From assembly GCF_000803625.1 (NCBI RefSeq), contig NZ_CP007496.1, positions 660,001 through 692,000 on the forward strand: 32,000 bases of DNA, in the 5' to 3' direction. The stretch comes from Candidatus Nanosynbacter lyticus (GTDB lineage: Bacteria > Patescibacteriota > Saccharimonadia > Saccharimonadales > Saccharimonadaceae). Below the pieces are notes generated by a model, which ran no database searches, was not told the DNA's origin, and saw only the letters and a list, made by a program, of their open reading frames with translations. Position numbers and translations under genes: made by a program. This document shows positions 6-30,768 of the stretch, one piece after another; the first letter of the stretch is position 1; each line of letters begins with the position of its first letter.

Positions 6-1559
6 CTAACTCGGTATATCTCTAAACAAATCAACCTCCTGGCGATCAATAGATATTTTATTCGTCTCCCTGATGCCTTGTAGTATATCGACGTCAACTA
101 TACTTGTGTCTCTAACTGTTTTCATTATGTCGTCCTTTAGCCAATCAATACACCAGATAATAGAATTATCAATATATGCTCTTTCACTGACTGACCGGGT
201 TAATAATTCATTAAATTGCAAGTCCGGATCAATAGAGTAAGATACTCGCTGCAACCAAATATCTAATAAGCCAGTGTTAGGTATAATCTTGAACTTATCA
301 AGAATTTTTTGAACAAGGAGTCCCCTCCTTGACTCACCCGCCCCACGGATAGTTAGACTCGCAACCGCCATCGCCATATTGTAGTATTTAGGGTTTTTAA
401 TTGCCATATTAACTACAATACTCAGCATAACTTCTGGTTTTTCATAATGACGTAAGCTTTTTCCTTGATCTAAGTAATCAAGAAGTTCCTCGTGAAACAT
501 ATTTAGCTGGCGAGACACCATACCTGAATTAGGATATTTATAACTAGCTGCATAAATCTGCATTAACCATTTTGCAAAATTATCTTTTTCTTTCTTTATA
601 TTCGGTATAAATAATTCTTCGATCTTATCCTTTTTAATAGAACTCAAGACTATATCGCTGCTCTTTTTGGTCTTCTGTGCATTTAATCTAAGACCAAGTA
701 TTGCTAAAATTTCAGTTAACTCTTTCAGTATACGAGCTCCTAGATCTAGCCTATTGGTAAAAATTCGATAGTCATCCCTGTAGCGAACAATGGAATATTC
801 TCTTTTATCAATATCTTTTATAGCTTGAGCTAAAAGATTATCAGCATATGCAAAGATAAGCTCAGCAATAAAATCAGAAAGAGTGTTTCCCTGAGGTATC
901 CCATTTGTTTGTCGATGATTCATCATCTGAAAATGCTCATCAATTTTACCTCCCAAAGATTTTTTATCACGGTTAGCATAAGCCTCGTCTTTACCATGAA
1001 GAGCCCATGAAATAGAATGCGTATATATTGATCCATAACAGTTTGCAACATCAGTTTCTAAGACATATCGAAACTCAAGACCTTTAGCCGCACAGTTTTG
1101 CTCAAATTTCTCCCACCAAGCACGTATTTGCTCCGCTTTCGCGCTTTTCTTTTTTGAGGGTTGCACTGGAATACTAGCAACTTCAATATTACAACCCCTC
1201 CTTAACTCAGAAAATCGCTTTTTTATAACACTCCAATTATCCTCTTTAGTGATATAATGCACTAACCCTACATAAAGAACCGGATTTATTATCTCAAATG
1301 GCCTCCAGGCTAGTTCACCGTCTTTGTTGCCGTAAATCACTTTATTTACATCATGTCTATCTCGTGGGTCTTTCTTCTTACGGCCACCATCCTCTGGATC
1401 AAAAAAATAATTAACATCATAACCGCCCATCTTACTTGACACAGCTTGAAGTATTGGATCAAAGTTAAAATATTCAGGCAAATCAAAGTTTACATAACTT
1501 TTACCGTCCAGCAAAAAAGCACGAGCTTGCTTATGATCAAGTTCTAATATATTAGCCAT
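6..1559 (-). CDS. Reverse transcriptase of the AbiA / UG-Abi (defence-associated, non-retron) type, 517 aa
   Basis: RT motifs are readable in the translation: KDGELAWRPFEIINP (motifs 1-2), LETDVANCYGSIYTHSISWALHGK (motif A), NGIPQGNTLSDFIAELIF (motif B), VRYRDDYRIF (motif C; YRDD = nt 771-782), LGLRLNAQKTK (motif D/E). The SIYTHSI-W-GK block resembles lactococcal AbiA as I recall it. A ~215-aa helical-looking C-terminal extension follows. The ATG shares one base with the hsdS stop (TAATG, 1557-1561). Confidence 0.8.
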   Translation of the reverse strand: MANILELDHKQARAFLLDGKSYVNFDLPEYFNFDPILQAVSSKMGGYDVNYFFDPEDGGRKKKDPRDRHDVNKVIYGNKDGELAWRPFEIINPVLYVGLVHYITKEDNWSVIKKRFSELRRGCNIEVASIPVQPSKKKSAKAEQIRAWWEKFEQNCAAKGLEFRYVLETDVANCYGSIYTHSISWALHGKDEAYANRDKKSLGGKIDEHFQMMNHRQTNGIPQGNTLSDFIAELIFAYADNLLAQAIKDIDKREYSIVRYRDDYRIFTNRLDLGARILKELTEILAILGLRLNAQKTKKSSDIVLSSIKKDKIEELFIPNIKKEKDNFAKWLMQIYAASYKYPNSGMVSRQLNMFHEELLDYLDQGKSLRHYEKPEVMLSIVVNMAIKNPKYYNMAMAVASLTIRGAGESRRGLLVQKILDKFKIIPNTGLLDIWLQRVSYSIDPDLQFNELLTRSVSERAYIDNSIIWCIDWLKDDIMKTVRDTSIVDVDILQGIRETNKISIDRQEVDLFRDIPS

Positions 1560-2668
1560 TATATCTTAATCTCTCCGGAAATTAATTTTGGTAAAAGCAA
1601 ATCACGAATTTTGGACAAATAATCTATTTGCTTCTTGTTTTCATGTATCATATCAAACAATGGTCGCACCATCTGCTCGAAATCATCAAACTCGCAATCT
1701 GATAAATCAACAATTTCCAAAAGCTCTATGTGCTTTGGATAAATATGCGGCTGACCAGAGCCAGTTTGCATATCGTATATCTCTTTTTGCTTGTTCTTGA
1801 GGAATAAATAGTAGGTATAAACATATTTGGTAATTGTTGAGTCAATGTACGAAGAGTCTGCCGACCATACTGGTTCACCCCAAACAGACACAAAACCAGC
1901 ATTTGCTCCGGATGCACTTATCGTGATAACTGGCGCGGTCGTATTTGCTTCATTGTGAAATCCGGCTGGCTTCAGTCCACCGCTAATAACCGGTGTGTCA
2001 CCACAAATCATATCTCTAGCTTGCAAACTTCTACCTCTTTTTGGATGAAACTTTTTTCCTAAAGGTATGGTCTGTATATTACCATTACTCTGCTTAGCTT
2101 TATCAACAAAATAATGACGAAAGAGGGTTTGGCCAAGCTGCTCGAGGGTTTCGTTCATGCGGCGGTTGAGCTCGATTTTTTCATCAAGGCTGCTGAGGAT
2201 ATCGGCAATTTTCTTTTGTTGGTAGAGTGGCGGCAGATTGATGGTCATAGCTGATATTTGCTTAGAACCCAAATTCTGCTGAGCAGCACCAACAGCAGCG
2301 CTTAGGAGTTTTTCATAACTATTTACAAGATAATAGTACACGAATCTATAATCAGCTTTGTTGTTATCAATTATTAAATTGCAACAGGCTTGATTTGTAG
2401 CCAATGGAATCTTATTAATCGCAGACCTGCCGGCAGTTGCACCATACATAGCTACAATCACGGAATCTTCAGGGATAATCTTTGCCGATGAGTTCTTTAG
2501 CCCTAATTCTGTAATTGTTTTTTCAGTTGAATAAATATTACCAAAATTAACCTCCTGAGTCCTTAACCACGGTATACCGCCACCATAGTAATCATCCCTC
2601 TTGGTTAACGGCGTTCCACCAGATGTAATTTTAGTACAAATATCGCTCAACGAAACCGTCTGTATCAT
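1559..2668 (-). CDS. hsdS: Type I restriction-modification specificity subunit HsdS, 369 aa
   Basis: Two variable target-recognition halves are separated by the central conserved helix LPPLYQQKKIADILSSLDEKIELNRRMNETLEQLGQTLFRHYF, with the C-terminal conserved LLPKLISGEIKI. The start overlaps the KAP gene stop (ATGA, 2665-2668). Same operon as hsdM. Confidence 0.85.
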   Translation of the reverse strand: MIQTVSLSDICTKITSGGTPLTKRDDYYGGGIPWLRTQEVNFGNIYSTEKTITELGLKNSSAKIIPEDSVIVAMYGATAGRSAINKIPLATNQACCNLIIDNNKADYRFVYYYLVNSYEKLLSAAVGAAQQNLGSKQISAMTINLPPLYQQKKIADILSSLDEKIELNRRMNETLEQLGQTLFRHYFVDKAKQSNGNIQTIPLGKKFHPKRGRSLQARDMICGDTPVISGGLKPAGFHNEANTTAPVITISASGANAGFVSVWGEPVWSADSSYIDSTITKYVYTYYLFLKNKQKEIYDMQTGSGQPHIYPKHIELLEIVDLSDCEFDDFEQMVRPLFDMIHENKKQIDYLSKIRDLLLPKLISGEIKI

Positions 2669-3960
2669 CGCTCATCACTTTCTGTAGAGATTGTTGTATA
2701 TAAACCAATGAGAGCAGTCGCCTCCTCAAAATCTTGTAGGTTTTCGCCACTTCGCCCCCTACCTTCAGAAGCAAAGATATTTTTGTATTCCACTATCAAC
2801 GCATCTACCGCCTTCTCTTTCATCTCCTCTTGCGATAAACTTGAACCATCCTCATATACAAATCTTTCTGCATATCCAAGAGCACTATATGAATTAGCAG
2901 TAAAATCTCTTAGTACGCCCTCACCTCTGCCTGATTTGAATTGTTCATATAAACTATCGTTTTTTATCTTTAGCGCAAGGGCCAGAGGTACGAACACAAG
3001 CTGTGTCGGATATTGGTCCTTCCTCCAGTTGTTATTTCTTGTCAGAAACCGACTCACCAAACGAAGTGATGAATAGTATGAATTAATTTCACGCATCTCA
3101 AAGCCGTAGTATTCTATAGCGTCAAATGCAACTCCATTAACTATCATGCTGCCTTCCATCCAGTCAAGTACGCTTCTTGCATACACTTCGATGCTCAACT
3201 TACGCAAACCAAACGTAAAATCAAAAAATTTATTTAGATACGCATATCCATCAAAGTCACTTCCGTAATATTTCTTAATTGTATGTGAAAGTTGATTGAC
3301 ATTTGTCGTAATGATGAACGTCACATCATCACGCATAAAATAATGCTTAACAACCTCTAGCAACTCGACAGCAAAAGACGGACGACAGCGATCAAGCTCA
3401 TCAATTACAAAAATGAGTCTTTCGGAATCACCTTTTAACTTATCAATGAATTCGTTTACTGTATCGTGTCGATTTACTTGATCTTTTACCGCTTTGACAA
3501 GGTCAGCCTTACTAGTCTTATTATCAATGTCTATAAAATCATGGGTTATGTTCTTTAATCCTGCAGACATGGTTATCATACTAAGAGCCTTCTTTATCGA
3601 GCCTTGGGTCAGACTTTCATCGTCGTCCGCTATCAACTTTAGCAACATAGCACTGAGCGCGTCGCCAAGATAATCATATTCCCACGCATTGAAATAGAAA
3701 GTTTTTTGTTTTTCTCGCAAAAGGTTGATTGCATTCTCGTCAAGAGTATTATGGCCATAATCTTGAATAGCACTGTCAGATAACATTAGTAGTTGCTTTA
3801 CAAACACCGTTTTACCGGATCCCCATGCACCATCAATTGCCAAAACGGTACTTTCTTTCAATGAATTTAGTAGCTTCACAAGCATTGACAGCTGATTGTT
3901 ACGCAGAATAGTATTATTGTGCAAATGCCTTAGGATTTGTTTATCTGTTAATTCTTTCAT
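2665..3960 (-). CDS. KAP-family P-loop NTPase, apparently soluble, 431 aa
   Basis: Walker A GAWGSGKT (aa 44-51), FNAWEYDY, Walker B FVIDELDRCRP (aa 184-194) and a later EMREINSYYSSLRL block are the KAP NTPase signature as I know it. No convincing TM helices lie between Walker A and B. An SD-like GGGGAAG sits in the 9-nt gap upstream. Confidence 0.75.
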   Translation of the reverse strand: MKELTDKQILRHLHNNTILRNNQLSMLVKLLNSLKESTVLAIDGAWGSGKTVFVKQLLMLSDSAIQDYGHNTLDENAINLLREKQKTFYFNAWEYDYLGDALSAMLLKLIADDDESLTQGSIKKALSMITMSAGLKNITHDFIDIDNKTSKADLVKAVKDQVNRHDTVNEFIDKLKGDSERLIFVIDELDRCRPSFAVELLEVVKHYFMRDDVTFIITTNVNQLSHTIKKYYGSDFDGYAYLNKFFDFTFGLRKLSIEVYARSVLDWMEGSMIVNGVAFDAIEYYGFEMREINSYYSSLRLVSRFLTRNNNWRKDQYPTQLVFVPLALALKIKNDSLYEQFKSGRGEGVLRDFTANSYSALGYAERFVYEDGSSLSQEEMKEKAVDALIVEYKNIFASEGRGRSGENLQDFEEATALIGLYTTISTESDER

Positions 3961-3969
3961 TTCTTCCCC

Positions 3970-4332
3970 TTAACCTTCTCCTTCACAGATAGCCCAGATG
4001 CGAAAATTGGTAGCAATATTTGACTTCACACGGTAACCAAGCTCAATTAACGTGTCTAGGCTATAATGCTCTATATTCCTTGAGACCTCACGATCACCTT
4101 TAGTTTGAACTATAAAGAATTTCTTTATAGTTGCCGAAGGGACGAGCGCTTTCTCTTCGTAGATATTCTTAATATGTTGGCCTATATTTTGCCTTGTAGT
4201 CTGAAATACCTGGGCCAACTGCACTTGAGTGAGCCACATATTTTCATCTTGTAGCCTAGCTTGAATCTGCGGCTTGCCGTCATCGCCAACATACAACACC
4301 ATCTCGCTGTTCGGGTTGTTGCTATTCATCAT
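3970..4332 (-). CDS. RhuM-family protein, N-terminal fragment only (120 aa; likely a truncated remnant)
   Basis: The translation [31 protein letters not shown] ... [33 protein letters not shown] matches the N-terminal third of RhuM-like proteins (usually about 300+ aa, from memory). It then ends in ICEGEG-stop. The start overlaps the hsdM stop (ATGA, 4329-4332). Confidence 0.6.
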
Positions 4333-5816
4333 TTGGTTTCTTTCTCTATTTTGGCAAGATTTTCTTTTATTTTTACCTCTAACTCACGGCTCTTCGCAAA
4401 TTGCCCTTCAAGCTCAGCCGTCAACCGAGCAAATTTCTCGGCGAACGGCTCATCGTCTTCCTCGGCCTCTTCGACACCAACGTAACGACCGGGTGCCAGT
4501 ACGTAATCATGCTGCTTGATTTCTTCTAGATCAGCGACTTTGCAGAAGCCCTGCTGGTCAGCGTAATCCGCGCTGGCAGTTTTATAATCGTGATATGTCT
4601 TTGCTACCCTGGCAATATCTTCTTCGGTCAGCTCGCGGTTACGACGGGTGACCATTTTACCCAAATTACGCCCATCGATGAACAGTACTTTACCGTGACG
4701 ATTAGCACGATCGCGCGACACAAACCACAGACAGCACGGTATAGCGACGTTAAAAAATAACTGACTCGGCAGTGTGACGATGGCGTCAACCATATCATTG
4801 AGCACTAGCTGCTTGCGGATGTCACCTTCGCCGCCAGTTTGACTGCTCATGCTCCCGTTTGCCAACACAAAACCTGCCGTACCACGCGGGCTCAAGTGGT
4901 GAATCATATGTTGAATCCAGGCAAAGTTAGCATTACCCTTTGGCGGCAGTCCATACTTCCAGCGTGGGTCGGCCTGCAAATGTTCTTGACCCCAGTCACT
5001 AATATTAAACGGTGGGTTAGCTAAGATATAATCAGCTTTCAGGTCAGGAAGCTGGTCATCCATCAAGGTGTCGCCGCGTTTGATATTTGCGTCAATTCCC
5101 CGAATTGCCATATTCATTTTAGCGAGTCGCCAAGTGGTTTCGTTGAGCTCCTGACCATACACCGCGATATCGCTAACGCGGCCCGCATGCTCCTCGACAA
5201 ACTTCTCACTCCAGACGAACATACCACCACTACCGCAACATGGGTCGTACACGCGCCCACTGTATGGCTCAAGCATTTCTACCAGCAATTTCACGATGGA
5301 GCGCGGCGTGTAGAATTCACCACCATGCTTACCCTCACTGTCGGCAAACATACCCATAAAATATTCGTACACTTGACCAAGCAAGTCTTTGGAGCTGGCA
5401 GTATCAAATTTAATATTGGTAAATAAATCGATGAGTTCACCTAGGCGACGCTTATCCAGAGCTTCACGAGCATAATTTTTTGGCAACACTCCCTTCAGAC
5501 TAGGGTTGTCGCGCTCAATCGCCTCCATGGCACTATCAACTAAGACGCCAATTTCTGGCTGTTTGGCACTCGCCACTAGGTATTCCCAACGAGCCTCCTT
5601 GGGAATCCAAAAAATATTCTCCGCCAAATACCAATCCTGGTCTTCAGGATCATAATTCTCATCAATCGCTGTCTGATATCGCACCGAAAACGCATCCGAA
5701 ACATATTTTAGAAAGATCAACCCCAGTACCACATATTTATAGTCCGACGAACTAATATTACCCCGTAGTTTATCCGCCGCAGCCCACAACTGCTTTTCAA
5801 GCTCCCTCGTATTCAT
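4329..5816 (-). CDS. hsdM: Type I restriction-modification N6-adenine DNA methyltransferase HsdM, 495 aa
   Basis: HsdM N-terminal domain ([32 protein letters not shown]), SAM-binding motif [13 protein letters not shown], catalytic LANPPFN. Confidence 0.93.
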
Positions 5817-5822
5817 AGATAG

Positions 5823-5831
5823 ATTATATCA
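5823..5831 (-). promoter_or_regulatory. Extended -10 element TGATATAAT placed 6 nt from the hsdM ATG (leaderless-type promoter)
   Basis: The minus strand reads TGATATAAT-CTATCT-ATG(5816). There is no Shine-Dalgarno. The element lies directly after the radC stop (5847-5849). Confidence 0.45.
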
Positions 5832-5846
5832 GATTTTGAGGCTCAT

Positions 5847-6500
5847 TTACTCTGCGTGCAGCAAGCTCTTGTAATTAAGTTTTGTAACGATAATATGATC
5901 ATTAAGCGTAATACCAAGCAGTTTTCCCGCTTCCACCAGCCTGTTCGTTACTTCTTTATCAGCAATACTGGCCCCTAAACACCCGCTCGGATGATTATGC
6001 GCCACGATAATCGAGGCGGCACGGTCGGCGATGGCGTCGGCGAAGACCTCGCGCGGATGTACCAAGCTGGCGGTCAGCGTGCCGATGGTCACCACCCGCT
6101 TGGCGATCAAACGATTCGCGCCGTCCAGCGTCAGGCAGACAAAATATTCCTGCTTTTTGTCGCGAATGTCGGCCAGTAGCTCGACGGCCTTTTCTGGGCT
6201 GTCGATGATTGGTTGGTCGCTATCTAGCAAGTACCGCCGCGCCAGTTCCAAACTTGCCAGAATCACCGGAATTTTCGCTTCGCCCAAACCAACCACGCTA
6301 CGCAGATCATCATACGAAACATCGCCGCCTTTTTGACGCAAAATTTTCAGTACCTCGCGCGCAATTTTACTGACATCGGCCCGAGCGTTGCCGCTGCCAA
6401 TAATCGCCATCAACAGCTCCAAGTCACTCAGCCGCGCCGTACCGTAACGCGCCAATTTCTCGCGGGGACGGTCGATTTTTGGCTTGTCGAGCACTTTCAT
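5847..6500 (-). CDS. radC: RadC-like JAB/MPN domain protein (UPF0758 family), 217 aa
   Basis: N-terminal helix-hairpin-helix-like region (LSDLELLMAIIGSGNARADV) and the C-terminal JAB motif IIVAHNHPSG. Confidence 0.85.
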   Translation of the reverse strand: MKVLDKPKIDRPREKLARYGTARLSDLELLMAIIGSGNARADVSKIAREVLKILRQKGGDVSYDDLRSVVGLGEAKIPVILASLELARRYLLDSDQPIIDSPEKAVELLADIRDKKQEYFVCLTLDGANRLIAKRVVTIGTLTASLVHPREVFADAIADRAASIIVAHNHPSGCLGASIADKEVTNRLVEAGKLLGITLNDHIIVTKLNYKSLLHAE

Positions 6501-6506
6501 AGTTTC

Positions 6507-6515
6507 ATTATATCA
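6507..6515 (-). promoter_or_regulatory. Extended -10 element TGATATAAT placed 6 nt from the radC ATG (leaderless-type promoter)
   Basis: The minus strand reads TGATATAAT-GAAACT-ATG(6500). There is no SD. Confidence 0.45.
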
Positions 6516-6597
6516 GGCTTCAACCATTCATCAGCTGCCAATCTTCGCGCTATCATTTCGTGCAGCCCTATTTATCGCTTACACCACGCAAAGATCA

Positions 6598-8355
6598 TCA
6601 GCTATTCGGAATCGCTCTAGCTTGTCGGCCGCGCGCCACACACATCGCCACCACCAACATACCAACCAGCCGCGACACCAATGACGAGTCATCCGCAGCC
6701 GATTGAGTCGTTGTCACCACTCCCTCTTCTGGATTTAGCGGACTATCGTCTGACCATAAACCAAATGATGGATGGATATTCATCAGCAAATCATCACCAT
6801 TCGCTACATTTTCTTCGCCATTATAGACACAATCATCCAGAGCATCGTTAAGTTCTACTTGCTCTCCGGACAGGTTGATGCCTGATTTTATATCACTAAC
6901 ATCCATAATTACACTTTCAATTTTATCATCACTGCGCAGCAAATCGCTTTTTTCCGATGTTTTCACAAACCTAAATTCACACTTCTCACGAGGCACGGGA
7001 CATTCCTCTGGAATTTTCGCTGCCACCTCGTCCGACTCAATATCAGGTATTGTTTCGATAATCGATGAAGTGGAAATAGTTACTTGCTCCACTGGCTTAT
7101 AGTCATCAGTTTCTTCACGCACTGTAATGGTTTCTATTGGCAGCGCAATCGTCACTGCTTCAGCCGAAGACACTTCCGACTCTACTGCTGGCGACTCCTG
7201 CCGTTCGACAAAGAAAACCGTATCTTCTTCAGCCCAAAAATCATTATCCTTATCATGACTACGCTCTACCGCTACATTGTTATAGTCAAGTTGCTCAATT
7301 GACGATATCTGTGTATCAATGAAAATTTGATCCGCCGCCAATACGTCAATCTCCTCATTTGGAGGATTAACCTTAGCTTCATCAATTATTGCGGTATCAA
7401 CCAGCCGCTCATTATCAATACTGTCAGTCGATTCGACAAAATTATTATAATCCGGCGTCGCATCTAAGGATTCTGGTGTCGGTTTCTTGTTGTCATTATG
7501 CGCTGCGTCAGAAATAGCATCAATGACGTGTGACTTCACCTCTATTGAAGGACTACTCGCCTCTGCTGTTTCGGTAAAATGCCCTTCGCCAGAAATTTCG
7601 CTAGTACTTTCTGACAGAGCTTCCCCGGCATCTGTAGTATCGTCAGCGGCAATTTCTGGGGCTGTTTTTAACTCAAAGAATGGCGTTTCTACTGCTTCAG
7701 TATCCACATCCTCGCCCGAAGCTTCAACCGCCTGGTTAGTCGAAGTTTTATCTTCTCGTTCCTGCGATATGAGTTTCTCAGTTGACTTATTTGTTTTAGT
7801 TGTCAAATCTATGGGTTTTGCCTCTGCCAACACTAGCTCAGGCGCTTTTTTAATAATAGGCTCTTGATAATCGGTAGGCTCTGAATATCCCGCCATCACC
7901 AATTCCCCGCGTCCATTTTCATCCAGACTGTCGAGATCGTCTGGAGCTAGCAATCTCTCCAGATAACTTTCTTTTGGTGTTATTTCCATCAGATTAGGAA
8001 CCGCCTCTTCACCCGCAGAACTCATATCGTCAGATAGTTTATCCTGACTCTCTGATTCCTGTTTCACGGCTAACGCCTGAGGTTTTACACACTGGCTAAG
8101 AAATGGACAGCCAACACATGTCGCGCATGCTGTTTGACCAATTGACGCTGTTACTTCCCCAGTAGAAGGTAGCTCTTCTTCACCGCTAGCCACCGCCACC
8201 AAATCAAACTGCTCAACACTATCAGCCACCGTTTCGCCAATACCAAACAAAAGATCTTCACCACTGACACCATCTCTTAGCGACGAAAATACGTCAGAAT
8301 CATCACCGTCAATTCCTGTCGATGATAATTCTACGGTAGTCGTCGCCCCAATCAT
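6598..8355 (-). CDS. Hypothetical hyper-acidic protein, 585 aa, with an N-proximal CxxCxxCx5C cluster and a C-terminal hydrophobic anchor
   Basis: 1.76-kb uninterrupted ORF whose ATG overlaps the upstream FNR-like gene stop (ATGA, 8352-8355). It is D/E/S/T-rich throughout. Cys77/80/83/89 (CATCVGCPFLSQC) map to nt 8089-8127. The C-terminus is LVSRLVGMLVVAMCVARGRQAR. I recognise no family. Confidence 0.55.
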   Translation of the reverse strand: MIGATTTVELSSTGIDGDDSDVFSSLRDGVSGEDLLFGIGETVADSVEQFDLVAVASGEEELPSTGEVTASIGQTACATCVGCPFLSQCVKPQALAVKQESESQDKLSDDMSSAGEEAVPNLMEITPKESYLERLLAPDDLDSLDENGRGELVMAGYSEPTDYQEPIIKKAPELVLAEAKPIDLTTKTNKSTEKLISQEREDKTSTNQAVEASGEDVDTEAVETPFFELKTAPEIAADDTTDAGEALSESTSEISGEGHFTETAEASSPSIEVKSHVIDAISDAAHNDNKKPTPESLDATPDYNNFVESTDSIDNERLVDTAIIDEAKVNPPNEEIDVLAADQIFIDTQISSIEQLDYNNVAVERSHDKDNDFWAEEDTVFFVERQESPAVESEVSSAEAVTIALPIETITVREETDDYKPVEQVTISTSSIIETIPDIESDEVAAKIPEECPVPREKCEFRFVKTSEKSDLLRSDDKIESVIMDVSDIKSGINLSGEQVELNDALDDCVYNGEENVANGDDLLMNIHPSFGLWSDDSPLNPEEGVVTTTQSAADDSSLVSRLVGMLVVAMCVARGRQARAIPNS

Positions 8356-9742: not shown

Positions 9743-11819
9743 AATGCTCCCTCATGTCAAATTCAGCCTGCTTACCCTTGTTCCACTGAGAAACTGGGCG
9801 CAAGAAGCCAACCACACGTGAGTAAACTTCGGTCGTTTCATTACAATTTGGACATGTTGGATGTTCACCAACCAAGTAACCGTGATTCTTACAAATACTG
9901 AAGCTTGGGCTGAAGGTGAAGTATGGCAGTTTGTAATTTTCACAAATCGTTTTGACCAGTTTTTTCAGCGTCTGCGGATCATCCATGCGCTCACCCAGGA
10001 AGAAGTGAATCACCGTACCACCCGTGTACTTGGTCTGCAAATTATCCTGCAAATCCATCAGCTCAAACAGGTCGTCAGTGTAGTTGACCGGCAAGTGGCT
10101 GGAGTTGGTATAGAACGGATGCTTGACCGCCGCGCCGAGGCCATTGGCGAAGTGCGCTCGGTCAGGGAAGCTGGCCTTGTCGAGCTGCGCCAAGCGATAG
10201 GTCGTACCCTCAGCTGGCGTCGCCTCCAGGTTGTAGTTATTGCCCGTTTCTTTCTGGTATTCCACCAAGCGGTCGCGCATGAAATCAAGTGTTTTCTCGG
10301 CAAACGCCTTACCCTTTTCCGTGCCAATGTCAACACCCAGCAGGTTCAACGCCGCTTCGTTGGTGCCAATCAAACCAATGGTTGAGAAGTGATTTTTCCA
10401 GTATTGGTTAAATCGCTGCTTGATGTTGCGCAAGTAGAACTTGGTGTACGGGTAGAGGTTAGCGTCAGTCAATCGCTCCAGGACCTTGCGCTTAGTCTCC
10501 AGACTATCTTTCGCCATATCCATGAGTTCGCCTAGGCCCTTGAAAAACTCTTTCTCATTCTTCGACTTCAGTGCCAAACGTGGCAAGTTAATCGTCACCA
10601 CACCAACTGAACCAGTCATTGGGTTTGAGCCAAACAAGCCACCACCGCGATATTCCAGCTGGCGATTATCAATGCGCAAACGGCAGCACATTGAGCGCGC
10701 GTCTTCTGGATCCATATCAGAATTGATGAAATTCGAGAAGTACGGAATGCCATACTTGGCGCTGGCTTCCCACAGACTTTCAATCACTGGATTATCCCAG
10801 TTGAAATCCTTGGTAATATTAACCGTTGGGATTGGGAAGGTAAAGACGCGGCCGTTAGCATCACCCTCAGACAGCACCTCCAGCAGCGCCTTGTTGAGCA
10901 TATTCATCTCTTCTTGGTATTCGCCATAAGTGGAATCCTGCATTTCACCGCCGATTATCACTGGATTATCAGCCATGTGTTTTGGGCACTCGAGATCAAG
11001 CGTAATGTTGGTAAACGGTGTTTGGAAACCAACTCGTGTTGGCACATTAACATTAAAGACGAATTCTTGCAGCGCCTGCTTCACCTCGTCGTAGTTCAAT
11101 TTATCAGCGCGAATAAATGGCGCCAGCAGTGTATCAAAATCAGAAAATGCCTGAGCACCAGCTGCCTCACCCTGCAAGGTGTAGAAGAAGTTTACCACCT
11201 GGCCCAAGGCTGAGCGGAAATGCTTGGCTGGCTTGGAGGCCACCTTTCCAGCAACACCGGTAAAGCCTTCTTGCAACAGATCAGTTAAATCCCAACCAAC
11301 ACAGTAAACACTGAGGAGATTCAGGTCGTGAATGTGCAAATCACCCTCTTTGTGTGCCTGACCAATCTTTGGCGTGTAGATTTTGTCCAACCAGTAAGTT
11401 TTGGTAATTTCGGCTGAAACGTAATTGTTCAAACCCTGTAGGCTGTAGCCCATGTTGGAGTTTTCATTCACTTTCCAGTCCAAGTTGCCCAGGTATTTAT
11501 CAATTAAATCAATGTGCGATTCAGAGGTAATTTCACGTAATTTTTTGTGCTGGTCGCGGTAAATAATGTAGGCCTTGGCGGTCTTCTTAAACTTAGAATC
11601 AATCAAAATATCTTCGACAATGTCTTGGATATCTTCAACGCCCGGTAGACGTTTTTGGTTGCGAGCTTCCAACACCACCAGCACTTTCTCAGTTAGATCC
11701 TCGGCAGTTTTTTTATCAAATTCGCCAGTCTCCAGGCCGGCTTTTTCAATGGCTTTTTCGATTTTTTTGCGATCAAATTTGACGGTGCGACCATCACGTT
11801 TTTTGATTGATTTGTACAT
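9690..11819 (-). CDS. nrdD: Anaerobic (class III) ribonucleoside-triphosphate reductase NrdD, 709 aa from the SD-supported start
   Basis: N-terminal ATP-cone (MYKSIKKRDGRTVKFDRKKIEKAIEKAG), active-site SMCCRLR, C-terminal Zn-Cys CKNHG...CPNC, and the glycyl-radical segment SRVVGFLRP. A strong SD TAAGGAGGGG lies directly before ATG 11819, so the ORF-track start at 11888 is rejected. Confidence 0.93.
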   Translation of the reverse strand: MYKSIKKRDGRTVKFDRKKIEKAIEKAGLETGEFDKKTAEDLTEKVLVVLEARNQKRLPGVEDIQDIVEDILIDSKFKKTAKAYIIYRDQHKKLREITSESHIDLIDKYLGNLDWKVNENSNMGYSLQGLNNYVSAEITKTYWLDKIYTPKIGQAHKEGDLHIHDLNLLSVYCVGWDLTDLLQEGFTGVAGKVASKPAKHFRSALGQVVNFFYTLQGEAAGAQAFSDFDTLLAPFIRADKLNYDEVKQALQEFVFNVNVPTRVGFQTPFTNITLDLECPKHMADNPVIIGGEMQDSTYGEYQEEMNMLNKALLEVLSEGDANGRVFTFPIPTVNITKDFNWDNPVIESLWEASAKYGIPYFSNFINSDMDPEDARSMCCRLRIDNRQLEYRGGGLFGSNPMTGSVGVVTINLPRLALKSKNEKEFFKGLGELMDMAKDSLETKRKVLERLTDANLYPYTKFYLRNIKQRFNQYWKNHFSTIGLIGTNEAALNLLGVDIGTEKGKAFAEKTLDFMRDRLVEYQKETGNNYNLEATPAEGTTYRLAQLDKASFPDRAHFANGLGAAVKHPFYTNSSHLPVNYTDDLFELMDLQDNLQTKYTGGTVIHFFLGERMDDPQTLKKLVKTICENYKLPYFTFSPSFSICKNHGYLVGEHPTCPNCNETTEVYSRVVGFLRPVSQWNKGKQAEFDMREHYDDAAEHQRACAVAVPA

Positions 11820-11994: not shown

Positions 11995-13005
11995 CTATAC
12001 AGCTTGTAGTAGATCATAAGCGGTGGCCGCTGACAGCGCCTGCATTTGGCGAAGATTATCACCTGGCTTAAGCGGCGGTTTGAGGCTGCGGATAAGGAAA
12101 AAACCGACAAACGCTGCCAGCATTTCAGTATTGAGTTCATCTAGCCACGGCGCTACATCCTGTCCGTGGCGCGCCATATCGATTAGAAACTCCGTCGCTC
12201 CAGACCCCTGAGGTGCATAGGAAGCCCAGTTCCAATCAACCAATTTCAACTCACCAGTTTGCGGATGAAACGCCAAGTTATCACTGCGAACATCAGTGTG
12301 ATTAAAACAATCTTCTGGCTGTTTGGCGAAGTGTTTAGCATGTACCGAAATATCGGCTAATTCATCGCCCCTATTTAGTAACTCTATCATCTTCTGGCAG
12401 CGCCGCTGGTTGACTTCTGATTGCTCCGGTAATAATATTTGGTAATTATCGATCAGCTGACGGCGAATATCACCGTCAATAATAATCTGGTCAATGCCAT
12501 TATCCAAGCCAAGTTCTGTCACTGCAAATGATTGCAGTTGCAGCTCCTCAATAACCTCACGTGGTAAATCTGTTTTTTCCAGCTCGCGAACCGCCGCTAC
12601 CACCGCTAAAATGTATCGTTCTGCCACAGATTTTTCCTCTGGCGGTTGCCACAACCAGCCGTTGGCTGACGCATAACTGGTTGTCATCAGCACATATCCA
12701 TCATCACTTAGCGTAATCTGATCAGCCACATATTGCGGGTGAATTTCCTGCAACATCCGCATCACTTCATAATCTTTTTTCAGCCAGCCTAATTCCCGCT
12801 CGCCTTCGTCTGGCAACACATCAACATCAACTTCTTTGACAAAAATCGTCCGATCGCCCGCCGACACCAAGGCTCGGCGATTACGTGAAAAGCCACCACT
12901 GACTGACGTTACTCGCAGGCCAGAAGAGCCGATACCGAGTTCTGCTGCCGCACAATGCAGCGCTCTGTCGGTCAACAACTGTCTTTGATTAACTAAAGCC
13001 TCCAT
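11995..13005 (-). CDS. Phosphotransferase of the APH / choline-kinase-like family, 336 aa
   Basis: Catalytic-loop motif FNHTDVRSDN (HxDxxxxN) followed by LVDWNWA (metal-binding Asp). Substrate unknown. Confidence 0.7.
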   Translation of the reverse strand: MEALVNQRQLLTDRALHCAAAELGIGSSGLRVTSVSGGFSRNRRALVSAGDRTIFVKEVDVDVLPDEGERELGWLKKDYEVMRMLQEIHPQYVADQITLSDDGYVLMTTSYASANGWLWQPPEEKSVAERYILAVVAAVRELEKTDLPREVIEELQLQSFAVTELGLDNGIDQIIIDGDIRRQLIDNYQILLPEQSEVNQRRCQKMIELLNRGDELADISVHAKHFAKQPEDCFNHTDVRSDNLAFHPQTGELKLVDWNWASYAPQGSGATEFLIDMARHGQDVAPWLDELNTEMLAAFVGFFLIRSLKPPLKPGDNLRQMQALSAATAYDLLQAV

Positions 13006-13011
13006 GTAAAA

Positions 13012-13020
13012 ATTATATCA
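13012..13020 (-). promoter_or_regulatory. Extended -10 element TGATATAAT placed 6 nt from the kinase ATG (leaderless-type promoter)
   Basis: The minus strand reads TGATATAAT-TTTTAC-ATG(13005). There is no SD. Confidence 0.45.
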
Positions 13021-13091
13021 TTGATATTACTACTGTTGTCTCATTAACCTACTACTATCGACTCTCTTTTGTTATTGGGTTTATAGACTAC

Positions 13092-13120
13092 TTTACTTTC
13101 ATTAAGCTTATAGTTATAAT
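13092..13120 (+). promoter_or_regulatory. Candidate promoter of the GH16 gene (-35 TTTACT, 17-nt spacer, -10 TATAAT)
   Basis: TTTACT = 13092-13097, TATAAT = 13115-13120. It is followed by SD GGGGGAG and ATG 13150. Confidence 0.35.
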
Positions 13121-13149
13121 ATCTGTGAATACATATATAGGGGGAGAAA

Positions 13150-14778
13150 ATGTTAATAAAAAAACGTTTTTCAAATAAAAAAGTAAAGGCATTGGCTGGA
13201 ATAATGACCGCATGTCTAATTTTCGGCGGAACATTATTTGCGTTACCAATACAAAATGCTAGAGGTAATGATGATTCATATCCACCCAACGATGACAATT
13301 ACGAAAAGGTTTGGTGGGACGAATTTAATGACACGTCTTTAAATAGAGAAAAATGGGATTATTACGTCGGCGGCTGGAACGCCAGTGAAGTTCAAAACTG
13401 CTATAAAGATTCACCCGAGAACGTTAATGTTAGTGGTGGCAGCTTAAACCTGGTCGGCCTTTATAAGCCAGGTCTGACATGTAACCAAGGAAGGAACGGT
13501 GACTTTACCTCTGGATTTGTGCATACAAAAGATAAAAAAGCTTGGACTTATGGCTATTTTGAAGCTCGCATAAAAATGCCAACAAATAAAAGTACTTGGC
13601 CTGCATTCTGGATGAGCCCTCAGGAAGCTAAATACGGTGGCTGGCCTAAGAGTGGAGAAATCGATATCGTAGAGACAAAGGGCTCTAACTTAAATTATGC
13701 CGCTTCTGATGCTCACTGGGGAATTTCAGCAGTGAATAAAAGCCACAGTCAGCGCGTAATTGGAACAGATAAATTTAGCGATACTAGCCAGTGGCATACA
13801 TACGGCGTTAAGTGGACCGAAGGCAAGCTTGAATTTTATATTGACGGTAATAGATACCATGAAATTAAAAACTTTAGCCAGCCGAACTCTACTAATCACC
13901 CTGGACCCTTCAATATCCCATTTTACCTACGACTTAACCTAGCGATTGGCGGTAGCTACATTGACGCTCCATGGAAAGATGCCCATAATTCTATAGCCGA
14001 CTTCCCAGCTACTATGTCAATCGACTATGTCCGTGTTTATCAGAGAAAACCGCGACAGCCTAAAAACGTCAATGTGCCAGATAGCAATTTGCGTACCCTG
14101 CTTAACCAAAAATTAGCAGCACAACTTGGGACTACTCGCACCAATGATCAAGTCATTACCGACGTAGAGCTAGAAAGCTTAACAAATCTTAACTTGGATG
14201 CAGCACCAAATGCACCACTTGATCAGCGAATTAACAATCTTACCGGCCTAGAGGCAACTAAAAACCTCACAGCCCTGTCCCTTCAGAATAATGCAATTAG
14301 CGACCTAAGACCGCTTGCCGGACTAGCATCCTTAACTTCGCTAAATCTTAATGATCAATTAATCGCTTCAAGCACTAATACCGACTCATTTGCTTCACCT
14401 CTAAGGGATCCTGCAGGAAATACTGTCGATATAAATAATTCAGCAGAAGTAGCTAACGATGCAGCAAACCCTGGAAAGATTAAACTACTCTCACCAATCC
14501 GTGACGGCAATCCTCATCTTATTGTCGCTAATTGGTCGAGGAACGTAACTATTGGGACAGCTTCAGCCGTCTTTAGTGGCAAACTTAATGTAACCGCCAC
14601 CTTGCAAGCAGCGCCAACACCACAGCCACAGCCTAACCCTAGTACGCCAAGTAATACTCAGAAACCAGGAAAAACTCAAAGCTCTAATAATTCACTAGCA
14701 AGCACAGGATTTAATATTCTCCTGGGAGTCGTAACTGCCCTACTGATTGGTATAGCAGGCATGTTTATCCTACGATAA
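13150..14778 (+). CDS. Secreted, cell-wall-anchored glycoside hydrolase family 16 (beta-glucanase/laminarinase-like) with a leucine-rich-repeat module and an LAxTG sorting signal, 542 aa
   Basis: N-terminal signal peptide (KALAGIMTACLIFGGTLFALPIQNA). GH16 catalytic motif EIDIVE (nt 13657-13674). Internalin-like LRRs (LTNLNL...NLTGLEATKNLTALSLQNNAISDLRPLAGLASLTSLNL). Pro-rich linker, then LASTG (nt 14695-14709) plus a hydrophobic helix and a basic tail. Confidence 0.85.
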   Translation: MLIKKRFSNKKVKALAGIMTACLIFGGTLFALPIQNARGNDDSYPPNDDNYEKVWWDEFNDTSLNREKWDYYVGGWNASEVQNCYKDSPENVNVSGGSLNLVGLYKPGLTCNQGRNGDFTSGFVHTKDKKAWTYGYFEARIKMPTNKSTWPAFWMSPQEAKYGGWPKSGEIDIVETKGSNLNYAASDAHWGISAVNKSHSQRVIGTDKFSDTSQWHTYGVKWTEGKLEFYIDGNRYHEIKNFSQPNSTNHPGPFNIPFYLRLNLAIGGSYIDAPWKDAHNSIADFPATMSIDYVRVYQRKPRQPKNVNVPDSNLRTLLNQKLAAQLGTTRTNDQVITDVELESLTNLNLDAAPNAPLDQRINNLTGLEATKNLTALSLQNNAISDLRPLAGLASLTSLNLNDQLIASSTNTDSFASPLRDPAGNTVDINNSAEVANDAANPGKIKLLSPIRDGNPHLIVANWSRNVTIGTASAVFSGKLNVTATLQAAPTPQPQPNPSTPSNTQKPGKTQSSNNSLASTGFNILLGVVTALLIGIAGMFILR

Positions 14779-14789
14779 TCATATAAACT

Positions 14790-14827
14790 AGAAGATGTCA
14801 TCACTTATGGTATGACATCTTCTTTTT
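14790..14827 (+). terminator. Rho-independent terminator of the GH16 gene
   Basis: Perfect 12-bp stem AGAAGATGTCAT / ATGACATCTTCT with a 10-nt loop, followed by a T-run (TTTTTG). Confidence 0.7.
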
Positions 14828-14855
14828 GTATATTTACTGTCCAGCTAAGATAGGT

Positions 14856-14882
14856 AAAGAAAAAACACCTCCGCAGAAGTGT
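14856..14882 (-). terminator. Possible small terminator downstream of tRNA-Asn
   Basis: The minus-sense RNA ACACUUC-UGCG-GAGGUGU forms a 7-bp stem including one G-U pair, followed by UUUUUCUUU. It starts 7 nt after the tRNA CCA end. Confidence 0.35.
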
Positions 14883-14889
14883 CTTTTCT

Positions 14890-14964
14890 TGGCTCCGGCA
14901 GCTGGGCTCGAACCAGCGACCTATTGGTTAACAGCCAACCGCTCTACCACTGAGCTATGCCGGA
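14890..14964 (-). tRNA. tRNA-Asn (anticodon GTT), 75 nt, CCA encoded
   Basis: The reverse complement folds as a cloverleaf. Acceptor TCCGGCA/TGCCGGA, D arm GCTC-AGTGGTA-GAGC, anticodon arm GTTGG-CTGTTAA-CCAAT, T arm GCTGG-TTCGAGC-CCAGC, discriminator G, CCA. Confidence 0.93.
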
Positions 14965-14975
14965 ATACGAATCTT

Positions 14976-15004
14976 ATTATAGCGAGTTTTTAAACAGTTG
15001 TAAA
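14976..15004 (-). promoter_or_regulatory. Promoter of tRNA-Asn (-35 TTTACA, 17-nt spacer, -10 TATAAT)
   Basis: Minus strand: TTTACA = 14999-15004, TATAAT = 14976-14981. The -10 element ends 11 nt before the mature tRNA 5' end. Confidence 0.5.
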
Positions 15005-15005
15005 G

Positions 15006-15338
15006 TTACTGACGAACAATTTCTAGTGCTTTTTTCAAAATTTCTACTTCTTTGCGTGATTTTTCATCATCTTTTTCTTCTCTTTTCTTGATCTCTCTAG
15101 TCAAATTATTCCACCAAACCTCTTTTTCAGCACTACACACAGCCAAAGACCTTACTTCGCCGTCGCGCTTATCCAGTAATCCTGCCGACACCAAATTATC
15201 AACATGTTTAGCTACAGTTGAAACCGATTTATATCCGAGTGCACGCATAATTTCCCGCAGTGTCGGACTGTAGCCGTTACCCTTAATAAAACCATCGATG
15301 AAATCCAGCATCATTTTCTGTTTTTTCGTCAACTTCAT
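15006..15338 (-). CDS. LexA-type winged-helix DNA-binding protein without the S24 peptidase domain, 110 aa
   Basis: MLDFIDGFIKGNGYSPTLREIMRALGYKSVSTVAKHVDNLVSAGLLDKRDGEVRSL matches the LexA N-terminal DNA-binding domain. The C-terminus is a K/E-rich helix instead of the Ser-Lys protease. ATG 15338 is preferred over the ORF-track GTG 15353, which lies inside the -10 element. Confidence 0.65.
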   Translation of the reverse strand: MKLTKKQKMMLDFIDGFIKGNGYSPTLREIMRALGYKSVSTVAKHVDNLVSAGLLDKRDGEVRSLAVCSAEKEVWWNNLTREIKKREEKDDEKSRKEVEILKKALEIVRQ

Positions 15339-15344
15339 ATCTAA

Positions 15345-15350
15345 AGTATA
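15345..15350 (-). promoter_or_regulatory. -10 element TATACT placed 6 nt from the ATG of the LexA-DBD gene (leaderless-type)
   Basis: The minus strand reads TATACT-TTAGAT-ATG(15338). Confidence 0.4.
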
Positions 15351-15360
15351 CACTATGCGC

Positions 15361-15366
15361 TATACT
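15361..15366 (+). promoter_or_regulatory. -10 element TATACT placed 6 nt from the ATG of the Wzy-like gene (leaderless-type)
   Basis: The plus strand reads TATACT-TACAGT-ATG(15373). It is the exact inverted copy of the element at 15345-15350, 10 bp away. Confidence 0.4.
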
Positions 15367-15372
15367 TACAGT

Positions 15373-29236: not shown

Positions 29237-29247
29237 TTGCTTAGTAT

Positions 29248-29340
29248 ATGAAAAAATATTGGTCTTTATTCTTATCTTTTATTAAAAAGCCTGAAAATGT
29301 CTTTATATCTTTGTCATTGTTTTTTGGAGTGTTGTCGGCA
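29248..29340 (+). repeat. 5' near-identical block of the tandem duplication (93 bp, 3 mismatches versus 30676-30768)
   Basis: Base-by-base comparison by eye. Identity starts exactly at the ATG and collapses after ...TTGTCGGCA. Confidence 0.85.
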
Positions 29341-30636: not shown

Positions 30637-30656
30637 CTATCCTAATCATGACAATG

Positions 30657-30665
30657 TGCTAGAAT
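30657..30665 (+). promoter_or_regulatory. Candidate extended -10 element TGCTAGAAT in front of the second DUF2142-like gene
   Basis: The element ends 10 nt before ATG 30676. There is no SD. Confidence 0.3.
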
Positions 30666-30675
30666 AAAAACAGTT

Positions 30676-30768
30676 ATGAAAAAATATTGGTCTTTATTCT
30701 TATATTTTATTAAAAAGCCTGAAAATGTCTTTATATCTTTGTCATTGTTCTTTGGAGTATTGTCGGCA
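30676..30768 (+). repeat. Partner of the 5' near-identical block (versus 29248-29340)
   Basis: Same comparison, offset 1428 nt. Confidence 0.85.

Follow-up and report, generated by a model that had tools for sequence, protein, structure and literature searches.

An Abi-P2-family polymerase gene embedded in a type I restriction-modification operon of Candidatus Nanosynbacter lyticus

The polymerase gene at the left end of the window

The window analyzed here is a stretch of 32,000 nucleotides (nt) from the genome of Candidatus Nanosynbacter lyticus (contig NZ_CP007496.1, positions 660,001 to 692,000), at whose left end a gene for a reverse transcriptase (RT)-like protein lies directly behind hsdS in a type I restriction-modification (R-M) operon. 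The open reading frame (ORF) that an earlier reading of the sequence (the original prediction) had placed at nt 6 to 1559 was recovered by ORF calling and is on the minus strand, with its ATG at nt 1559..1557 and its stop codon at nt 8..6. The product of 517 amino acids (aa) is 100% identical to TM7x_03560 of Candidatus N. lyticus, a member of the Saccharibacteria (TM7). Ca. Minimicrobia vallesae IHU2 (0.71 Mb) and metagenome-assembled genomes (MAGs) of uncultured Saccharibacteria share the protein, and the identical sequence was found across many independent metagenome contigs (67 index blocks, 61 member sequences). The gene and the features within it are the following:

6..1559, minus strand: gene for the Abi-P2-family polymerase (ORF; profile, pairwise and fold matches; product identical to TM7x_03560)
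1470..1472, minus strand: codon of Tyr30 (LPEYFNF), the predicted priming tyrosine, which aligns without gaps to Tyr61 of Abi-P2 and is invariant
1050..1052, minus strand: codon of Asp170, the catalytic aspartate of motif A (TDVANCYGSIYTH), from direct reading; an invariant column in the alignment
771..782, minus strand: YRDD (motif C), residues 260-263, from direct reading; R261, D262 and D263 invariant
654..1559, minus strand: RT-like lobe (fingers and palm), about residues 1-302; RVT_1 at residues 145-301, last beta strands ending at residue 300, superposes on the RT-like domain of Abi-P2
9..653, minus strand: C-terminal all-helical (alpha-solenoid/alphaRep) lobe in place of a thumb, about residues 303-517; helices only from residue 303, pLDDT mostly >85

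TM7x_03560 is a clear member of the Abi-P2 family (Class 1 UG/Abi) and is not AbiA-like. The PADLOC AbiP2 model PDLC03744 matched it with E = 4.1e-171, residues 1-513 aligning to profile positions 4-484 of 489, and the next PADLOC families were RT_UG14 (3e-51), Drt6 (1e-48), Drt4 (2e-44) and Drt3b, with AbiK at E = 1e-28 in a match confined to residues 162-397. When the PDB was searched with phmmer, the Abi-P2 structure 7R08 was matched over residues 2-493 (E = 6e-72), and both tblastn and BLASTP aligned the protein to ORF570 of P2-EC30, the founding Abi-P2, at 33% identity over 99% of its length; profile and founding protein are thus both matched along the full length. Similarity to AbiK over the full length, helical domain included, was seen neither with PADLOC nor with Foldseek, and the Pfam scan gave RVT_1 (residues 145-301) as the sole domain. 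The claim that the gene encodes an Abi-type polymerase is borne out by profile, pairwise sequence and predicted fold, and the comparison with the UG/Abi classes that had been proposed as a check returned Abi-P2 as the best class, with retron and group II RT models far below their cut-offs and no repeat pair of a diversity-generating retroelement (DGR) near the gene.

A resemblance to lactococcal AbiA, which the original prediction saw in two sequence blocks, did not hold up. The blocks in question (SIYTHSISWALHGK, from residue 177 on, and GIPQGN, from residue 220 on) are those of Abi-P2, P2-EC30 having SIYTHSFEW and GIPLGSTL at the aligned positions. AbiA was not among the top 25 PADLOC families for the protein, its structure 8OZ7 gave no sequence match at E <= 1e-3 in the phmmer search, and the C-terminal HEPN domain that defines AbiA is missing, the last residue of the protein, 517, still lying within a helical lobe of the Abi-P2 type. 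We rejected membership in AbiA on the lack of a HEPN domain, the lack of a sequence match and the lowest TM-score of the three Abi structures.

The alignment also bears on the start of the founding protein. In ORF570 of P2-EC30 (contig L102, 78-1718, annotated as 546 aa) it is Met32 to which the start of TM7x_03560 aligns, and the close homologues, mostly 490-530 aa long, are likewise too short for the N-terminal extension of ORF570. For these reasons the first 31 residues of the annotated and crystallised Abi-P2 may lie outside the native protein.

An AlphaFold2 model built from an alignment of 54 sequences had a pLDDT of 92 and a pTM of 0.92. In a Foldseek search of the PDB its top six matches were all six chains of 7R08, with TM-scores of 0.81-0.84 normalised to the query and 0.87-0.88 normalised to the target, a root-mean-square deviation (rmsd) of ~3 A and a full-length alignment of ~530 columns. 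The other TM-scores were 0.63 for DRT6, 0.58-0.61 for DRT4/UG15, 0.51-0.54 for AbiK (rmsd 7-11 A), 0.42-0.46 for AbiA (13-14% identity), 0.28-0.34 for group II, retron, DRT2 and DRT9 RTs and ~0.3 for telomerase RT. The structural comparison suggested in the original prediction, naming Abi-P2 and AbiK, thus places the predicted fold closest to 7R08 (0.84/0.88), AbiK reaching ~0.53. The predicted structure is bilobal, with palm and fingers but no thumb and a C-terminal helical solenoid, and such a helical domain has been described for Abi-P2 and for Class 1 UG/Abi RTs (PMC9508834, PMC9226505).

Residue conservation was scored over an alignment of 54 homologues at 42-68% identity, in which Tyr30, Pro28, Asp170, Gln223/Gly224, Arg261/Asp262/Asp263 and Lys296 are invariant. 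The motif YRDD reads at nt 782..771, as had been claimed. The description of the RT motif set as complete stands for the catalytic motifs (Asp170, QG at 223-224, YRDD and Lys296), but "complete" is too loose a word, Abi RTs having been described as lacking RT motif 7 (PMC8632793). At the N-terminus the ungapped alignment to P2-EC30 pairs Tyr61 with Tyr30 (LPAYINF against LPEYFNF) and Tyr46 with Phe15. In Abi-P2 the substitution Y61F kills DNA synthesis and Y46F does not, and Tyr61 sits on the alpha2-alpha3 loop of the fingers (Figiel et al., PMC9508834); Tyr30 lies on a loop between helices 19-22 and 34-44 of the AlphaFold2 model. Both an intact active site, with the motif A aspartate and Y(R/V)DD, and a tyrosine at the priming position are therefore present. 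These features of sequence and model are what a functional Abi-P2-type enzyme would show; its chemistry, and protein priming in particular, we infer from homology.

Room for an RNA partner is scarce on both sides of the gene. The original prediction had put the upstream spacer at zero, and indeed the last A of the hsdS stop codon TAA is the first A of the RT start codon (TAATG), which makes a spacer of -1 nt. The region left of nt 6, the only place where it had left room for an ncRNA, is downstream of the RT, since the gene is on the minus strand, and a convergent gene follows there after 8 nt. Two MAG contigs with a 97%-identical RT (L009 and L010) have likewise -1 nt to hsdS and 8 nt to hsdR. 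Rfam gave no match in the locus at gathering thresholds, nor at E <= 1 across its 11.5 kb, and the same 11.5 kb hold no repeats of at least 16 nt beyond chance. The claim that no non-coding RNA (ncRNA) accompanies the gene is upheld in this respect, no Rfam family match or repeat pair flanking the RT on either side, including the sequence left of nt 6 that was to be inspected. Among loci with near-identical RTs the upstream DNA is conserved for ~50 nt only, because the hsdS genes of L009 and L010 are just 33-34% identical to that of the window, and this stretch encodes the conserved C-terminus of HsdS. No ncRNA partner is indicated for the RT, which is unsurprising because Abi-P2 makes DNA in vitro even when no nucleic acid is supplied (PMC9508834).

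The type I restriction-modification operon and its variable inserts

The gene order at the locus is hsdM, a RhuM remnant, a KAP NTPase gene, hsdS, the RT gene, a convergent gene pair and hsdR. The flank downstream of the RT gene was taken from contigs L001-L008, which encode the identical RT protein; in these the RT stop codon is followed after 8 nt by the convergent pair and then by a 1050-aa HsdR on the RT strand. The features, in window positions unless stated otherwise, are:

1559..2668, minus strand: hsdS (369 aa), its stop overlapping the RT start by 1 nt (TAATG); Pfam Methylase_S 1.2e-38, PADLOC Specificity_I 1e-88
2665..3960, minus strand: gene for a P-loop NTPase of the KAP family (PADLOC PDC-S20), a variable cassette within the operon, with a 4-nt overlap into hsdS; Pfam and PADLOC
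3970..4332, minus strand: N-terminal remnant of RhuM/PDC-S05 (120 aa); Pfam RhuM positions 1-48 of 252, PADLOC models positions ~1-113 of 330-346
4329..5816, minus strand: hsdM (495 aa), the first gene of the R-M operon; Pfam N6_Mtase 2.7e-113 and HsdM_N, PADLOC MTase_I 2.7e-208
5847-6500, minus strand: RadC gene (JAB domain), directly upstream of hsdM
11563-12847 of contig L002, minus strand: convergent two-gene insert between the RT gene and hsdR, just beyond the left edge of the window; a 168-aa PIN protein (Pfam PIN 3e-6) and a 264-aa protein

The presence of hsdR downstream, which the slot claimed for the RT had implied, is thus seen in the contigs with the identical protein. With regard to the slot of PrrC in the prr locus, to which the position had been likened, the RT gene does lie between hsdS and hsdR in the same orientation, but here the convergent pair intervenes before hsdR. 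Within this pair the 264-aa gene overlaps the PIN gene by 17 nt and the PIN stop codon is 8 nt from that of the RT; the 264-aa protein had no match in Pfam or PADLOC, and the pair might form a toxin-antitoxin module or some other small module for defence. Only in the TM7x lineage does it come between hsdR and the other genes of the operon.

In L009 and L010 there is no KAP gene, no PIN gene and no 264-aa gene; hsdR begins 8 nt past the RT stop codon and hsdS is a different allele, with the low identity to that of the window given above. Where the window has the RhuM remnant, L009 has a full-length RhuM of 340 aa after hsdM (5788-6810), and in both contigs RhuM is followed by a 666-aa ORF without a PADLOC match in the place of KAP. 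The RhuM copy of the window looks like the leftover of a cassette replacement. Two more contigs, L015 and L016, carry other inserts, again with no PADLOC match. Since L009 and L010 keep a 97%-identical RT while KAP, the PIN/264 pair and the hsdS allele change, the RT is the constant occupant of the slot between hsdS and hsdR in this lineage, and the other inserts come and go.

Base composition varies along the window. GC content is 36-40% over the RT, hsdS and KAP genes, against 47-52% over hsdM, RadC and the nrdD region and 41-49% over most of the window beyond (42-52% when most of the window is taken together). The low values are consistent with horizontal exchange of embedded cassettes.

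Some of the copies are damaged. The RT of L001 is 100% intact although hsdM is frameshifted there (5774-7232) and hsdR (12927-14953) has lost residues ~350-706, which is weak evidence that the RT is independent of the R-M enzyme. In L011 (Ca. Minimicrobia vallesae IHU2; 10001-11550 and 12936-16086) the RT (near aa 136), hsdR and the 264-aa gene are all frameshifted, and these frameshifts may be sequencing errors.

As to transcription signals, a promoter and terminator scan of the locus gave 20 promoter-like sites where 23 were expected. A 21-nt motif with TATAAT (CTGATATAAT...CTATGAA) is repeated, standing just ahead of both the RadC and the hsdM starts (5044-5064 and 5728-5748 of L002), suggesting duplicated promoter or leader sequences.

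Homologues, proposed mode of action and alternatives

The homologues examined came from 80 metagenomic loci found by an alignment-based scan and several more found by exact-protein look-up; a pattern search of genome contigs with the single protein gave 4 loci, all of the window's own lineage, its patterns being too specific. An upstream hsdS was counted when an HsdS ORF, recognized with a profile built from verified sequences, ended at most 200 nt from the RT start on the same strand. By this measure HsdS is directly upstream in 15 of the 52 loci (38-68% identity) having at least 1.2 kb of upstream sequence and not in the other 37; the 15 include two near-duplicate pairs and one locus from the window lineage, so the share is roughly a quarter. 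All ten of the upstream ORFs tested with Pfam were Methylase_S above the gathering threshold. Of 27 loci whose flanks reach 3 kb or more on each side, six have hsdM/S upstream and hsdR downstream. Twelve embedded loci (three from the window's own lineage) have an overlap of 1 or 4 nt between the hsdS stop and the RT start, and in five of them hsdR also follows the RT within 8-35 nt.

In a neighbor-joining tree the embedded state is scattered through the RT clade, the sub-clade of the window being mostly embedded except for contig L014. The partner HsdM and HsdR identities span from 27-32% to 71-79%, and because they vary so widely more than one type I family is involved. No type I genes are present in four loci (L013, L014, L017 and L018; RTs of 46-64% identity) with 5-8 kb of sequence to either side, and the plasmid and prophage copies, found in the P2 hotspot or next to unrelated genes, show no link to type I genes. 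The comparison with PrrC drawn in the original prediction accordingly holds for the position, between hsdS and hsdR and co-oriented; beyond that it does not, as HsdS is missing ahead of about three quarters of the homologues sampled, PrrC by contrast being almost exclusively embedded (bioRxiv 10.1101/2024.01.29.577857), and the near-obligate association with R-M seen for PrrC is lacking (15/52; 6/27).

In L014 (7299-9560) an RT of 64% identity stands directly after RadC, itself 50% identical to the RadC of the window, with no hsdM, hsdS or hsdR. Upstream are genes for a MazG-like protein and a Schlafen-group-3 helicase, a pair also found ahead of the RT in L013. It looks like the R-M genes were lost from a RadC-hsdM...hsdS-RT arrangement and the RT was retained.

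Our interpretation, which we hold to be probable, is that TM7x_03560 is a stand-alone, protein-primed and untemplated polymerase of the Abi-P2 family, with a two-lobed fold, embedded in a type I operon and co-expressed with R-M. This agrees with the original prediction of a protein-primed Abi-type polymerase that was recruited into an R-M operon and needs no ncRNA, the priming itself being a prediction from homologous enzymes. Judging from characterised members of the family (PMC9508834), the polymerase would oligomerise as a trimer or hexamer, prime on its own tyrosine and extend single-stranded DNA (ssDNA) of random sequence with neither template nor RNA, while the helical lobe would hold the nascent strand where a template would otherwise lie. 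It would serve as a stand-alone second-line antiphage defence of the abortive-infection type. For the trigger an analogy with DRT4 and DRT6 may be drawn: these enzymes constitutively produce random ssDNA, which an exonuclease of the host breaks down, and once a DNA-binding protein of the phage shields its 3' end the ssDNA accumulates and is toxic (PMC12783706). By analogy, a phage ssDNA-binding protein might stabilise the otherwise degraded product of TM7x_03560, to the harm of cell or phage. Embedding would serve co-transcription, translational coupling and co-inheritance with R-M, with no mechanistic dependence on it.

Autonomy is supported by the homologues of 46-64% identity outside R-M loci, by others in P2-type prophages or plasmids and by the neighboring KAP and PIN/264 genes, which vary while the RT stays constant. 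No partner gene or ncRNA is conserved, the neighbors differing both among loci with 97-100%-identical RTs and among distant ones, and AbiP2 is listed elsewhere as a stand-alone multi-domain protein (PMC9226505). Furthermore, autonomous defence systems embedded in type I R-M, BREX and DISARM operons, 96.7% of them co-oriented, have been reported (Payne et al., bioRxiv 10.1101/2024.01.29.577857), and TgvAB is a further example of embedded defence (PMC11411939). We found no explicit statement on the embedding of AbiP2 in type I R-M loci in the literature searched, which included the supplement of the embedding paper in part.

Several points weigh against this interpretation. Identity to the characterised Abi-P2 is only 33% and the activity of the Saccharibacteria homologues is a prediction, and one review asks whether defence by Abi-P2 needs other elements of the locus (PMC8632793). 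A trigger of the DRT4 type is an analogy only. Finally, the tight and recurrent coupling of hsdS and RT, with its 1- or 4-nt overlaps in 12 loci and its scattering over the tree, exceeds simple co-location in an island, and therefore leaves room for a functional coupling to the R-M enzyme.

Such a coupling, be it functional or physical, is the core of the alternative that deserves most attention, a guard like PrrC, in which the polymerase would be held inactive by HsdM/S/R and released when a phage anti-restriction protein disables R-M. The PrrC position between hsdS and hsdR speaks for it, as do the 15 of 52 loci with HsdS directly upstream (a true Methylase_S in each of the ten tested), the 12 overlapping gene pairs, five of them with a close hsdR, and the occurrence of the arrangement across the RT tree with type I families of differing HsdM/HsdR identity. 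On the other hand, 37 of the 52 homologues are not preceded by HsdS, several with 8-kb flanks have no type I gene nearby, and the founding Abi-P2 and the plasmid copies sit in prophage hotspots or beside unrelated genes, a distribution that contrasts with the almost exclusive embedding of PrrC (bioRxiv 10.1101/2024.01.29.577857). In L001 the RT is intact despite a frameshifted hsdM and an internally deleted hsdR, L014 retains its RT next to RadC without R-M genes, and it is documented that autonomous systems generally can be found inside type I loci. We regard a guard of this kind as unlikely, and see a similarly small chance that an HsdS-coupled sub-population of Abi-P2 is wired to the type I enzyme, for example by sensing inhibition by DNA-mimic anti-restriction proteins or stalled translocation.

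It is very improbable that the protein is instead a templated RT (retron-, DRT2/DRT9-, DRT3-, group II- or DGR-like) whose RNA is hidden in a neighboring coding sequence or elsewhere. An RVT_1 domain is present, and some Class 1 UG/Abi RTs, such as UG8 in DRT3, do use an ncRNA (PMC9226505); there are also weak NCBIfam matches to group II, retron and Drt2/3 cores. The retron, group II and Drt2-5 models, however, align to the RT core only and score far below their cut-offs (in bits, 56 against 300 for group II TIGR04416, 31.6 against 235 for retron NF038233, 25 against 390 for Drt2 and 124 against 450 for Drt4). There is no maturase, endonuclease or thumb domain, TM-scores to group II, retron, DRT2 and DRT9 RTs stay at 0.28-0.34, Rfam is silent at E <= 1 across the 11.5 kb, and the spacers are of -1 and 8 nt, with flanking genes that are swapped in relatives having a 97%-identical RT.

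The statements of the original prediction on each templated class were correct. Pfam shows no GIIM or HNH domain, hence no maturase or endonuclease tail after motif C, and neither maturase X/En nor intron RNA domains were found by Pfam, Rfam, profile score or fold (TM ~0.3). The retron string VTG is absent from the protein, and an adjacent msr/msd is likewise missing, with no Rfam match and no intergenic space. No pair of template and variable repeats (TR/VR) with A-specific mismatches lies near the RT, and the 11.5-kb locus holds none. We thus rejected a retron, group II, DGR or DRT2/DRT9 identity on sub-threshold profiles, the missing Rfam matches at E <= 1, the missing repeats and TM-scores of ~0.3.

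The sole long direct repeat in the window (29247-30636 against 30675-32000) is ~29 kb from the RT and consists of tandem paralogues of a DUF2142 membrane protein (29247-32000, plus strand), 1428 nt apart. Their identity is mosaic, being 91% over the first 100 nt, 92-100% over the last ~350 nt compared and 48-76% in the middle, a pattern that points to gene conversion of the ends or else to a diversified center. As a TR/VR pair of a DGR this repeat was rejected, because the copies are whole-gene paralogues and the spectrum of their mismatches is not biased to A.

Just as improbable is a multi-gene system made up of the RT together with the KAP NTPase, the RhuM remnant or the PIN and 264-aa pair. 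All of these are packed in one locus, KAP (PDC-S20) and RhuM (PDC-S05) are PADLOC defence candidates, and PIN is a nuclease-type effector domain; yet KAP, PIN and the 264-aa gene are missing from L009 and L010, whose RT is 97% identical, the inserts of L015 and L016 are different ones, PIN/264 is encoded on the strand opposite to the RT and the RhuM of the window is just a 120-aa remnant. A system with KAP or PIN/264 was rejected on their absence from loci with a 97%-identical RT. It is scarcely credible that the gene has lost its function and is decaying as a passenger of a genome in the course of shrinking: L011 has a frameshift in the RT near aa 136, the RT of L022 (contig coverage 1.9x) is split, and the GC of the gene is below that of the rest of the window, but the ORF of the window is intact over its full length, recurs with 100% identity in many independent metagenome contigs and has all family-invariant residues, and the disruptions are likely sequencing errors because those records have other frameshifts or very low coverage.

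With TM7x_03560 taken as a stand-alone Abi-P2-family polymerase, the present labels of the protein and its relatives, "hypothetical protein" and "RNA-directed DNA polymerase", can give way to the name of an Abi-P2-family protein-primed polymerase, with Tyr30 as the predicted priming residue. That an episymbiont of 0.7 Mb maintains a type I R-M operon filled with no fewer than three additional cassettes of defence type argues for real phage pressure on bacteria of the candidate phyla radiation (CPR), and the first experimental TM7x-phage system has just been reported (PMC13578794). Genetic work by way of natural competence has become available in Saccharibacteria (PMC10187176). That about a quarter of the sampled Abi-P2 relatives stand directly behind hsdS, usually with overlapping codons, raises the question of co-regulation versus coupling; if it were true, wiring to R-M would make these enzymes a polymerase-based "guard" like PrrC or PARIS, and the TM7x copy an experimentally accessible CPR example. 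The enzyme family is well characterised and the type of arrangement has been published, the unusual element being the host phylum. Of interest are the recurrent, translationally coupled hsdS-RT-hsdR architecture and the density of defence cassettes in a CPR genome of 0.7 Mb.

Comparison with known systems

Abi-P2 itself (P2-EC30 ORF570, 7R08) is the nearest known system. The two proteins are collinear over their full length (33% identity, 99% coverage) and share the two-lobed fold (TM 0.84/0.88), the blocks SIYTHS, QTNGIP.G and VRYRDDYRIF, and the priming tyrosine, Tyr61 corresponding to Tyr30 in LP.Y.NF; both are single-gene units with a GC below that of the surroundings. They differ in the host, an enterobacterial prophage in one case and a Saccharibacteria episymbiont in the other, and in the setting, the P2 hotspot as opposed to a type I R-M operon in which TM7x_03560 is embedded and to which it is translationally coupled. 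The annotated start of ORF570 is also 31 residues before that of TM7x_03560 (the position of Met32), and the identity is only 33%.

DRT4 (UG15) and DRT6 (UG12), also single-gene RTs of UG/Abi Class 1, give the next best profile and structural matches (TM 0.58-0.63). DRT4 starts from a tyrosine of its own as protein primer and synthesises random ssDNA, and it provides the only worked-out trigger model of the class (PMC12783706). They are nevertheless separate families, with an rmsd of 6-9 A and helical lobes that cannot be superposed in detail.

The two lactococcal enzymes are more remote. AbiK of Lactococcus lactis (7R06/7R07) performs protein-primed (Tyr44), untemplated ssDNA synthesis and has RT-like and helical lobes in a trimer-based oligomer, but its similarity to TM7x_03560 is limited to the RT core (TM ~0.53), the helical domains being without sequence homology (PMC9508834). 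AbiA of L. lactis (8OZ7) is likewise an Abi-class polymerase with an RT-like and a helical lobe and makes DNA without a template; it differs in its C-terminal HEPN domain, which TM7x_03560 lacks, and in being a dimer (PMC11077055).

PrrC of EcoprrI (type IC) is an unrelated protein, an ABC-ATPase/HEPN-like anticodon nuclease and not a polymerase. Nearly always found embedded, it is kept masked by the R-M enzyme, whereas Abi-P2 relatives are embedded in about a quarter of the sampled loci and occur in prophages and plasmids as well; in TM7x, moreover, the convergent gene pair parts the RT from hsdR. What the two loci have in common is an accessory defence gene placed after hsdS and before hsdR in the same orientation, a case of "defence embedded in defence".

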